From NCBI RefSeq assembly GCF_056712565.1, contig NZ_CM160072.1: a DNA stretch of 64,000 nucleotides. One strand, given 5' to 3'. Every line of letters begins with the position of its first letter. Position 1 is the first letter of the stretch. A program made the position numbers. Below are positions 58,801-61,800 of the stretch, in pieces.

Positions 58801-61800
58801 TCCTAACCCACCAGGTGAGGCTGATTTTATTGCAGCTTATGGCGTCAGAGAAGGAAACCTGCGATATACCGAGTTCAGAAATACGCAGATCGCCGGACAG
58901 TATATAGGCTCTTTCCGCAACATGCCGACAAGCAGCATTACCGCATATGTTGAGCAATTGCGCCCGGATACTGGTGAAACAGGGGAGGGGTATGCGTCTC
59001 GTGCGAAGTTATTCGACCGGGTATCGGCGGCAGCCACGAAGGTAATAACCCAGAGGCAGAATAATCCGTTTAGTGCAGCGGTGGAAATCGGAGCCTATAA
59101 GCCGATCACCAGCAACAACCCTGACGACATCACTGCCGAGGTGGCTAACCGTTTCTCGTCGCAGGAAAGCTTACGCGCGTTGGGAATTAATGCCCCAATC
59201 CTCAACAGTGAAGAGGCGGCTGCGCTGGCACAGCAGGTGCGCGGCACTCAAAACGTTGACCAGACAATTAAACTGTTGCAGAGCATGGGGGAAAAGCTAC
59301 CTGCGCCAGCAATACGGCAGGTGGCATCTGTAATTGCTCCGAACAGTGCAGCAACAGCCTATTCTGCGCTGCTGCTGGGCACGCCGGATAATCAGTACGA
59401 TAACACCAGGCCGTCGATCCCATATAGTCAGTTCATCGGGTATAAGCCGACGATGAACAAGTACGACGTTGCAAAGGTTATTCTTTCCGGTGACCAACTA
59501 CTGAATCCGACGAAGGCTATGAAGAATGCGGGCATAACTCCGGTACAGTTGCCGAGCGAAGATAAAATGAAGCGCGCTTTCGACGAACAGGTTGGTAATG
59601 CATTTGCCCGTAACCCAGAGACGCGCCAGATCAGTTATAGCCTTTTCAAAGCCGCTTACGCAGGAATCGCTTATCAGTCTGGTAATGCGTCTATGACGAG
59701 CACAGATGCGGTTAACTCCGATGTGGCGGAGAAAGCTGCGCAGTACGCAACAGGCGGTGTATACAAGAGATTTAATGGTGGTGATGTTGTAATGCCTTTC
59801 GGCATGGATGAATCCACTTTCAAAGATCGCTATACCACATCAGCGAAACAAGCACTGAAAGATGCCGGACTTAACGTAAATGCAGTGTCAAACTTCACAC
59901 CAGTTAATATCGGCAATAACCGGTATCGGCTGGTAAATGGTAGCGGACGCTGGGCAACAGATCCCAGAACCAATGAAGCTATTGTCGTGAGGGTTGAATA
60001 ATGTCTGATGTTTTTTCTTTGGCTCCAGAAGGTCAGGCATGGATTGACGACAAAACAGTTGCCAACCCAGCAAGGCCAGAAGACTACGATCCGACTCCCT
60101 TCCAGGGTTCAGGTACTGCACTTTTGAGCGGCGTGGCGGAGGGGGCTCTCGGTCTCGCGCAGTCTGCCGTCGGATTCAGCAAGCGCCTGATTAGCGATCC
60201 GGCATTTACCGCAGACGTGGCACCGACTGTTAATATTTTTCGGGAGATGTTCCCTGATGCTGACAAAACACTGAATGATACATACGACACGATCGGAAAA
60301 CAGTTACAGGATGCCCGCAGCTATGTGAAGCCTGATGCAGGCAGTCAGGGAATGGCGGCTGAGGTATTAAATGAGCTTGGTAAATTTGTTCCTGCAATCG
60401 GAACAACTATGTTTGGCGGTCCCCTCATCGGCGCTGCTACAGCTTTCAGTTCTACGTATGAGCAGTCCTATCAGGATTTTAAAGGGAAGGGAGTAGACGA
60501 GGCTACGGCGCGTAACCTGGCAACGCAGCAAAGCCTTTTCAATGCTGTGGGTATGGCCTTACCCGCTGCCGTCGGCACCACACTGGCAACGCGCATTGCC
60601 TCAGGTGTGGCAATCAACACCGGATTCGGTGGACTGAACCGTTACTCTGTCGGCGCAACACTGGAGGAAAAAGGCTACACGGAGATGGCAAAACAGTACC
60701 GGGTATTTGACGGTCAGGCGATGTTAGTCGATGCCGTTTTAGGCGGGGTCTTTGGTGGCGTTCATCACCTGACTACCCATAATAACCATGATGGTACAGA
60801 GTCGAACATTTCTGCAGAAGAAATAAAATCAACTTTTGGTGAACATTATCAGCAATCTCCTGATGGTAACATTGAGTCAATGGTTCGTGATTTATCTGAT
60901 TCAGGAGTAATAGAACTTATTAATGAACCAGCAATAAAAAATAGTGATGGAGAAATACTTCTGAATAAAGGTCATGTGACAGTAGCTTCTGGAAAAGAAC
61001 CAATAATAAGAATAAATATTAATGGATTAAAAGATCATGAAGAACTGTTAGAAACCCTTCATCACGAGGCGCTTCATCTTGAGCAGCGCCATTACCCTGA
61101 CTGGAAGGCCAGAAAGCTAGCTAATGCTGTACTTAAATCTGCAAACAAGCATTCTGACTATCCTGAATTTGCATATGGGATGTCACAATATTATGAATAT
61201 AAGAAAAGGGGTGAGTACCCTGAAACATATCCTGAGTGGTTGTACGCTGAAGAAGTTGCCGCACATGCAGTAAATCCATCTCTAAAGACAAGCGTTTCAT
61301 CATGGGAAAAAATTATTTCAGGTTTTAAAGCCTATATATTCAGATACAGTGGTATTCAGGTTGGAACCGTTACACCTGAGCAGTTACGGTTACTCGTAAG
61401 TATGCGTCTTCGCAATATGAAACTGGAAGCCGCAGTCGAAAAAGTTTTTGGTATCCGGGCAAGGGAAAGAATAAAACCAAGCGATATTGATGCAGCCCAC
61501 ATTTTGAATGAGGGGCTTCATTACGATATTGAATCGTCACCAGTGCTTCACACCAGCAATGAGAGCATCAACAGCCATGTTGACGCCATGGATGAAGCAT
61601 ACAGGCAACTTAATGATGGTCAGCCTGTAAATGTTGGGGGGATGGCGCGAGGGCTTGATGGTCCATTGCGATCAGATATATCTGATACTTACCAAGAGCA
61701 ATACCATGAAATACAAAAGGTTTTTGAAGAAAATGGTGTCAGATATGAAACATCATCAGAGCCAATTAGTGAATCGCCTGTCCCTCGTGCTGAAAGTGCT

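Follow-up and report, generated by a model that had tools for sequence, protein, structure and literature searches.

The DNA analysed here, called the window, is a stretch of 64,000 nucleotides from contig NZ_CM160072.1 of the NCBI RefSeq assembly GCF_056712565.1. It contains a homolog of the gp16 gene of Salmonella phage epsilon15, located in an internal-virion/ejection-protein operon, and an AT-rich segment with an HExxH motif lies in the middle of this gene. The locus therefore raises the question of how such a segment came to be inside a phage ejection-protein gene and what it may do there. We found that the centre of the gene has been replaced by a non-homologous, compositionally foreign cassette. 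By its motifs and profile matches, the cassette belongs to an HExxH family found inside giant DarB-like/PLxRFG virion proteins of podophages. The features of the gene are as follows.

60001..62061, + strand: complete open reading frame (ORF) of 686 amino acids (aa) plus stop; epsilon15 gp16 homolog (PHROG 1145) in an internal-virion/ejection-protein operon
60001..60771, + strand: conserved N-terminal domain, aa 1-257, rich in Ala and Gly, in which four segments are mildly hydrophobic; common to many podophages
60772..61470, + strand: replaced AT-rich cassette, 699 bp, aa 258-490, GC content 0.382, GC content at third codon positions (GC3) 0.258
60862..61425, + strand: zincin-like HExxH module, aa 288-475, delimited by a hidden Markov model (HMM) from distant phage homologs only
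61063..61077, + strand: HEALH (H355, E356 and H359 invariant in 39 of 39 members), putatively binding zinc and supplying the general base, on a long helix after the beta-sheet
61249..61254, + strand: invariant Glu pair E417-E418 (E136/E137 of the alignment), candidate third zinc ligand of gluzincin type, on a later helix, aligned with the Glu of 'NEF' in N4
61357..61383, + strand: C-terminal signature Q453-x-G455-x-x-T458-P459-x-Q461 (GxQxGxVTPxQLR), invariant and family-specific
61471..62061, + strand: conserved C-terminal domain, aa 491-686, starting with IKPSDIDAAH, identified by homology to epsilon15-type genes

Results

A foreign cassette in the centre of the gp16 gene

The first-pass annotation of this DNA had proposed that an AT-rich, in-frame segment at 60780-61560 carries HEALH at 61063-61077 and might be a swapped-in domain of different origin. 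The motif is exactly at this position, where it encodes residues 355-359 of the 686-aa ORF, and the frame is intact. The sharp drop of GC content relative to both flanks was seen in sliding windows and in GC3 alike. Of the proposed limits, the start was accurate, since the change-point lies at 60778, and the end was placed about 90 bp beyond the true end of the cassette at 61470.

In 300-bp windows, GC content is 0.547-0.550 at 60400-60799, falls to 0.350-0.357 at 60800-61199, remains at 0.39-0.43 until about 61600 and is then 0.44-0.49. A maximum-likelihood three-segment fit, whose log-likelihood gain over one segment is 20.4, gave the sharp 5' change-point at 60778 and located the deepest trough, with GC 0.314, at 60778-61054. 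GC and GC3 are 0.532 and 0.510 in the N flank, and 0.469 and 0.413 in the C flank. Towards the 3' end the composition changes only gradually, since the C flank too is rather poor in GC. Compared with all 699-bp windows of the gp15-gp17 genes (mean 0.505, standard deviation (SD) 0.020, minimum 0.461), the GC content of the cassette is lower by 6.1 SD, and it is 2.8 SD under the level of the whole island in which the gene lies. Low GC content is not rare in the 64-kb window (9.4% of its 699-bp windows are equally low, mostly in the waa lipopolysaccharide (LPS) core cluster), so the anomaly of the cassette is one relative to its own gene and operon.

Three other explanations of the AT-rich stretch were rejected. 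For a hidden promoter, one promoter-like site was found against 3.4 expected; for a hidden terminator, none of the four terminator-like matches in the ORF is inside the cassette; and for an antisense gene, the other frames contain no ORF of at least 60 aa within the cassette. As a separate observation, GC content of the C flank (61471-62061) is 6 points under that of the N flank (60001-60771), and the two flanks are nearly equal (about 0.55-0.59) in epsilon15-type homologs.

Comparison with homologs showed that only the flanks of the gene are conserved. In an alignment of the window protein, epsilon15 gp16 and an Escherichia coli prophage homolog, aa 1-257 and 491-686 were about 85-90% identical to epsilon15 gp16 and the centre was unalignable with either protein. 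Likewise, phrog_1145 matched the 686-aa protein with an E-value of 1.9e-136, split into two stretches. At the DNA level, the flanks have 75-79% identity to epsilon15-type genes, and homology to 14 epsilon15-type loci stops at 60770-60774 and restarts at 61470-61471. These breakpoints coincide exactly with the conserved anchors GGxHHL on the left and IKPSDIDAAH on the right, and the left one matches the GC change-point at 60778. An insert-bearing phage contig (L127) aligns to the window gene without interruption.

We surveyed 66 gp16 homologs from IMG/VR, and their centres fell into three classes: a Pro/Ala/Glu-rich linker of 69-77 aa in proteins of 521-529 aa, a linker of 177-193 aa with a coiled-coil-like segment in proteins of about 629-645 aa, and the HExxH type of 234 aa in proteins of 686 aa. 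About 60 homologs carry a linker, with or without the coiled coil, where the window protein has the cassette. A GC-poor centre occurs only in the HExxH class; in all others, GC content of the centre is 0.51-0.65 and does not fall below that of the flanks. The centres of the other homologs are unrelated and lack the GC dip, and the swap of the domain is supported by these unrelated centres together with the clean breakpoints. Epsilon15 gp16 itself (NP_848224, 634 aa; PHROG 1145) is an ortholog by synteny with similar flanks. Unlike the window protein, it has in its centre (aa 257-438) a Pro/Ala-rich linker and a coiled-coil-like segment, with a uniform GC content of 0.52-0.60 and no HExxH. That this centre is a degraded or diverged protease was rejected, because hhalign comparison with the module gave a probability of 0.08%.

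Decay of the insert-bearing gene was also observed. A metagenomic copy (L056/L013; IMG/VR 3300022775_000039), 97% identical, has a premature stop that leaves a 308-aa product, and in the P0006 cluster (8 sequences, 640 aa) the C-terminal region is frameshifted.

The cassette belongs to an HExxH family of giant phage proteins

A scan of viral contigs found 39 distant homologs of the module, from which an HMM was built. This HMM, which contains no window sequence, scored residues 288-475 of the window protein at 38.8 bits (E = 4.6e-14 in a single-target test). In the 39-sequence alignment, H355, E356, H359, E417, E418, A421, Q453, G455, T458, P459 and Q461 are invariant. HExxH is thus conserved in 39 of 39 members, and also in a diverged ortholog, P0007. 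Neither of the two outcomes that had been named as refuting the swapped-in domain, a segment uniform with its flanks across homologs or a non-conserved HExxH, was observed. PHROG 10089, the 'DarB-like' antirestriction family, matched the cassette over 196 residues (E = 2e-4). By tblastn (E about 2e-3), matches were found in giant proteins of Ralstonia, Serratia, Klebsiella and Ochrobactrum podophages with genomes of about 60 kb. The similarity to the giant proteins is collinear over about 190 residues and includes the invariant HExxH, EE and GxQxGxVTPxQLR. Lys, Asn, Ile, Glu and Tyr are abundant in the module.

The giant DarB-like/PLxRFG proteins have 3200-4800 aa, and their modules are 20-28% identical to that of the window over about 190 aa, with the invariant HExxH, EE and QxGxxTPxQ in common. 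The carriers are Ralstonia GP4/Gervaisevirus, Serratia Parlo, Klebsiella ZX1, Ochrobactrum POI1126 and Bcep22-like phages, podophages of roughly 60 kb. In these proteins the module is flanked by methyltransferase, LPD3, GNAT and LPD39 domains; it lies between the methyltransferase and GNAT/LPD39 in Parlo and after LPD3 in GP4, and no Pfam family covers it. Those copies are GC-rich and come mainly from phages of beta- and alpha-proteobacteria, whereas the window copy is the most divergent member of the family, with an extra insertion before the HExxH helix and a different carrier protein. JC1 gp69, a carrier of a relative of the module, is virion-associated by mass spectrometry.

Searches against general databases gave little. 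Pfam searches of the full protein and of the alignment members found no relevant family, only a spurious match to FapA_N, and an NCBIfam search of the protein found nothing meaningful. With phmmer, the insert matched only a 74-aa fragment of the same protein among 1.84 billion representative proteins. A word-indexed search returned no match with the insert alone and just 3 matches with alignment A2. Sequence searches of the PDB with the protein and with the family profile gave chance-level matches only.

A closer donor of the cassette was not found in viral, genome or metagenome scans. The scan of genome contigs, whose consensus-derived patterns exclude window-type sequence, gave only 8 distant prophage copies of alpha/beta-proteobacteria, and the metagenome scan, in which the patterns were the poorly conserved N-terminal ones, gave only identical copies. 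One protein of Pectobacterium zantedeschiae in AFDB50 (A0A9X8JH42, 832 aa) matched the module with 30% identity and an E-value of 3e-7 in a structure-guided alignment. This uncharacterised protein is nearer to the module than all of the copies in giant proteins, and it may be an intermediate or a relative on the donor side.

The HExxH domain of the coliphage N4 virion RNA polymerase (vRNAP), an ejected virion protein, is the founding member among phages of the 'zincin-like MPTase' domains (Iyer et al. 2017, PMC5512222). Comparison of the module family with aa 2110-2460 of the N4 vRNAP by hhalign gave a probability of 87.7% (E = 3.4e-6, 122 columns), with the preceding beta-strand, HExxH (HELVH in N4) and the Glu downstream of it all aligned; for two negative controls the probabilities were 0.3% and 0.08%. 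Like the module, the C1 domain of N4 vRNAP gp50 (about aa 2124-2375) belongs to a podovirus internal-virion/ejection protein and has no Pfam model. The C2 domain that adjoins C1 in gp50 is like internal virion protein (IVP)-D, and in the window an IVP-D-like protein, gp17, is encoded by the next gene. N4 gp50 differs from the window protein in being a 3500-aa polyvalent protein with an RNA polymerase, whereas the module is the only enzymatic module in 686 aa. Identity between C1 and the module is only about 16%, and the QxGxxTPxQLR signature of the window family is outside the aligned region.

Predicted structure of the module

An AlphaFold model based on the alignment had a predicted local distance difference test score (pLDDT) of 83.5 and a predicted template modelling score (pTM) of 0.81. 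A single-sequence run was unusable (pLDDT 54.6), and the alignment-based model was used instead. The order of elements in the model is an N-terminal helix, a small beta-sheet, a long HExxH helix, two helices, the EE helix and two more helices. In model numbering these include helix 10-19, strands 23-26, 38-40, 44-49 and 52-58, helix 65-83 with H74, E75 and H78, and the EE helix at 131-142. The published zincin core consists of an N-terminal helix and a three-stranded beta-sheet, with HExxH on the first of two conserved helices (Iyer et al. 2017, PMC5512222). The topology of the model matches this core and would thus be zincin-like, with an insert between the two catalytic helices (PMC5512222). 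The structure prediction of the central residues and the membership in an HExxH family together lend support to the earlier suggestion of a metallopeptidase-like module.

The best structural neighbours of the model were folds of the anthrax lethal factor-like type (ATLF/M34), ArdC, CapP, PPEP and SprT, and Foldseek against the PDB gave no significant match. Matches in AFDB50 include 'large polyvalent protein-associated domain' proteins. The C-terminal metalloprotease of ArdC, ATLF/M34, CapP, PPEP and SprT resemble the model in having the HExxH helix on a small beta-sheet and, on a helix further along, a third ligand, for which the model offers a candidate. Both ArdC and CapP take part in conflicts of mobile elements with their hosts.

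A diverged copy in a phage operon

P0007 is a 690-aa homolog that has the same cassette and is 71% identical overall. It is encoded on an 11-kb contig in a genuine epsilon15-like operon with gp13-like, gp14-like, gp15, gp16, gp17 and gp18-like genes. Its module is 63% identical at the aa level to that of the window; the proportion of synonymous differences (pS) is 0.74, which is saturated, that of nonsynonymous differences (pN) is 0.23, and the ratio of the nonsynonymous to the synonymous substitution rate (dN/dS) is about 0.09. P0007 keeps HHEALHLEQR, EEVAAHAV and FKAYIFRYSGxQxGxxTPEQLR. The residual linker, aa 258-281, is poorly conserved, with 33% identity to P0007. The GC dip is weaker in P0007, where the cassette has 0.445 and the flanks have 0.505 and 0.514. 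Because the divergence is saturated, dN/dS is low and this copy is in a phage operon, the swap is old, under purifying selection and not specific to the island.

The gp15-gp16-gp17 operon and the carrier island

The gp16 homolog lies between two other genes of the same type, so that the gp15-gp16-gp17 synteny of epsilon15 is kept.

57470..60001, + strand: upstream gene, epsilon15 gp15 homolog, 843 aa, with a lytic-transglycosylase-like region; phrog_992 (E = 2e-298) and phrog_7182 'tail injection transglycosylase'
62061..64000, continuing past the window end, + strand: downstream gene, epsilon15 gp17 homolog by homology (IVP-D, T7 gp16-like according to Hardies et al., PMC4819975)

In epsilon15, gp13 is IVP-A, gp14 is IVP-B, gp15 and gp16 are candidates for IVP-C, and gp17 is a homolog of IVP-D (T7 gp16); the IVP-C role of gp16 was only inferred in that study (Hardies et al., PMC4819975). 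In other podovirus groups, IVP-D is homologous to the C-terminal domain of N4 vRNAP gp50 and, for the F116/Bcep22 group, to very large proteins that bear a methylase (PMC4819975). Hydropathy peaks in the window protein's N-terminal domain are 1.0-1.34, under the classical transmembrane threshold. Only one enzymatic module is recognisable in the window protein, between the two gp16 domains, and hence the carrier is not polyvalent.

The window is 99.96-99.98% identical to the chromosome of E. coli ExPEC XM, and 36 of 5426 complete E. coli genomes encode a protein identical to the 686-aa gp16 homolog, whose cluster (P0005) has 339 member sequences. The gp15-gp17 genes are outside any prophage and form the end of a 19.9-kb island, which has yicC and dinD as its neighbours. 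This island spans 46783-64000 of the window and about 2.7 kb past its end (6783-26719 of contig L128). Its left end has the following features.

46783..46806, + strand: left att-like direct repeat of 24 nt, whose partner is 19,913 bp downstream, past the window and just before dinD; the pair is 92% identical
46864..48132, + strand: tyrosine integrase of the island, adjoining the left repeat (phrog_1, E = 3.8e-64)

In addition to the integrase, the island contains Rha, AntA/B and BRO regulators, an Icd-like protein, a primase (phrog_1139, E = 2e-174), SSB, a ProQ/FinO protein and a frameshifted PerC gene. No capsid, portal, terminase or other head/packaging genes are annotated in it. Relatives of the primase were found in satellite-like records of 10-17 kb, among them the SaPI-like PT1028. 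By megablast, island-bearing genomes have no second copy of gp16, with one place per genome. A P4-like nature of the island was rejected, since the primase is not P4-alpha-like in the phage database matches and no psu, delta or sid is annotated. The island looks like a satellite of the phage-inducible chromosomal island (PICI) type that encodes its own ejection proteins. No published description of such an island was found.

In E. coli GF43 (L003 7276-10496 against window 46864-50495), the cargo is 98.8% identical from window position 50496 on. There it is located at tRNA-Gly and comes with an AlpA, while its integrase and regulatory end are not those of the window. Because the same cargo occurs at another site with another integrase, the integration module is exchangeable. 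The PerC-family regulator gene at 56809-57034, which lies immediately upstream of the structural genes, carries a frameshift according to the annotation of both ExPEC XM and GF43. Three IMG/VR contigs of 17-23 kb (L110, L111 and L112) have an SSB gene about 70% identical to that of the island about 1 kb upstream of gp15. They encode a 632-aa gp16 of epsilon15 type without the HExxH cassette, and appear to be a sister lineage of the island with the other cassette type.

Other features of the window

At 28000-37300, the window contains an AT-rich (GC 0.31-0.40) waa/rfa LPS core-oligosaccharide cluster with O-antigen ligase and glycosyltransferases, which is a known low-GC region unrelated to the cassette. 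At 3993-9471, a pseudogene with an internal stop is followed by a gene for a 1583-aa YadA-like trimeric autotransporter, in surroundings with GC content of 0.41-0.42. Internal repeats of the latter gene, 6280-6560 and 6502-6782, are about 86% identical.

Discussion

The best explanation of the locus, to which as a whole we assign about an even chance, is that the central linker region of gp16, a protein of ejection/tail-hub type, is a permissive, recombination-prone cassette site between conserved anchors, and that the MPTase-type module placed there is most likely an active zinc endopeptidase that rides on the ejection apparatus and acts on a host protein. In this lineage, a zincin-like module of about 200 aa from an AT-richer, unsampled source has taken the place of the Pro/Ala-rich linker, with or without a coiled coil, that is usual there. 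Zinc would be bound by H355, H359 and either E417 or E418, with E356 as the general base. The module would be carried by the ejection apparatus and would work when the apparatus is deployed in the newly infected cell. Its target would most probably be a host protein and its role accessory. The role as an accessory effector is favoured because the module is missing from most gp16 proteins and gp16 carries nothing else that could be released. The replacement itself, the foreign composition, the family membership, the invariant motifs, the purifying selection and the zincin-like predicted fold are shown here; that the module binds metal and is catalytic, that virions contain gp16, and what the substrate is, we infer.

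Internal virion proteins that evolve rapidly are known to carry catalytic cargo also in T7 (the gp16 lytic transglycosylase), phiKMV (the gp36 lysozyme) and Pf-WMP3 (the murein D,D-endopeptidase of IVP-C). Those accessory domains are muralytic and terminal, whereas the module of the window is protein-peptidase-like and internal between two conserved domains.

Several points weigh against the idea of an active endopeptidase imported from an AT-rich source. The metal site of H355, H359 and E417/E418 is a prediction from the motif and the order of helices. The Pfam model of MPTase-PolyVal (PF18818) did not match the window protein, four giant-protein segments or the N4 C1 segment at E <= 10; the N4-type branch is not covered by this HMM. 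Jiang et al. in 2006 and Guichard et al. in 2013 reportedly did not detect gp16 among the epsilon15 virion proteins; if this is right, the module may act in the producing cell. Finally, low GC3 is kept in both diverged copies of the cassette despite the saturated synonymous divergence, so a simple recent import followed by amelioration is not a full explanation.

A less probable alternative is self-processing, in which the module cleaves gp16, or gp15 or gp17. The cut could come after ejection or while still in the capsid, and might for instance detach the membrane-active N-terminal domain from the C-terminal one. Autoprocessing has been argued to be the commonest role of MPTases, with P1 DdrB cited as a case (Iyer et al. 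2017, PMC5512222). The position of the module between two separately conserved domains, beside the poorly conserved residual linker (aa 258-281), would suit such a role, and its relatives are likewise located between other domains of giant proteins. However, the roughly 60 gp16 homologs that have no protease at this site indicate that the core function needs no processing, gp16 has no other effector domain to be released, and N4 vRNAP is packaged unprocessed (PMC5512222). We therefore regard self-processing as unlikely.

It is more doubtful that the module acts at the assembly stage or without catalysis. gp16 would then be unpackaged, and the module would be a maturation protease or a chaperone-like scaffold for the tail hub, or else a structural or binding domain whose folding depends on a metal. 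Non-catalytic zincin derivatives typically lose HExxH, but here HExxH and the Glu pair are invariant down to 20% identity, and the relatives are carried by genuine virion or ejected proteins.

Similarly doubtful, and if anything a little more so, is an envelope-directed peptidase. It would work in the periplasm with the gp15 transglycosylase and cut stem peptides of peptidoglycan, Lpp or another envelope protein for the trans-envelope channel. Proteins of the IVP-C type have repeatedly gained muralytic domains, such as the phiKMV lysozyme and the Pf-WMP3 murein D,D-endopeptidase, and gp15/gp16 have been proposed as IVP-C equivalents (PMC4819975); the neighbouring gp15 has a transglycosylase-like region. 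Nevertheless, the structural neighbours of the model are protein endopeptidases and not the M15, M23 or M74 cell-wall folds, and in giant proteins the relatives adjoin domains that act in the cytoplasm (DNA methylase, GNAT and RNA polymerase).

The possibility that nothing was imported, and that the segment diverged in situ with its AT-richness due to amino-acid composition or local selection (translation rate, H-NS binding), agrees with the abundance of Lys, Asn, Ile, Glu and Tyr and the low GC3 of both diverged copies, but it is very improbable and already largely refuted, because the epsilon15-type centre is non-homologous to the module (probability 0.08%), homologs of the module are present in unrelated giant proteins, GC3, which is largely independent of amino-acid content, is 0.26 against 0.51 and 0.41 in the flanks, and the sharp breakpoints coincide with the compositional change-point.

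The satellite context of the gene is a more surprising lead than the module itself. It is conceivable, though we think it improbable, that the island represents an undescribed kind of satellite with interchangeable integration modules and no capsid, portal or terminase, which has its own gp15-gp16-gp17 of an epsilon15-like helper, one of these proteins being equipped with an HExxH module of N4-vRNAP type. Such a satellite would customise the DNA delivery of the virions it hijacks, and the protease injected along with the DNA would disable some factor of the host or helper in the recipient cell. If true, satellites encoding their own ejection proteins would extend piracy beyond the redirection of capsid size and the capsid-forming PICIs.

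In conclusion, a defined cassette-exchange site is documented here in an ejection protein. The HExxH 'MPTase' is the commonest domain in polyvalent proteins injected by phages and plasmids (Iyer et al. 2017, PMC5512222). The domain type is thus already known; the novelty lies in the carrier of this N4-type MPTase-like domain, which is new and minimal, and in the defined cassette site that the domain occupies. A 686-aa carrier with a single accessory domain is tractable, whereas the giant carriers of 3000-4800 aa are hard to handle. The gp16 variants in which this site holds a coiled coil or just a 69-aa linker are near-isogenic natural controls, and the second copy with 63% identity shows which residues matter. 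The small carrier, the natural controls and the second copy together make the function of an injected HExxH domain directly testable in E. coli/Salmonella.

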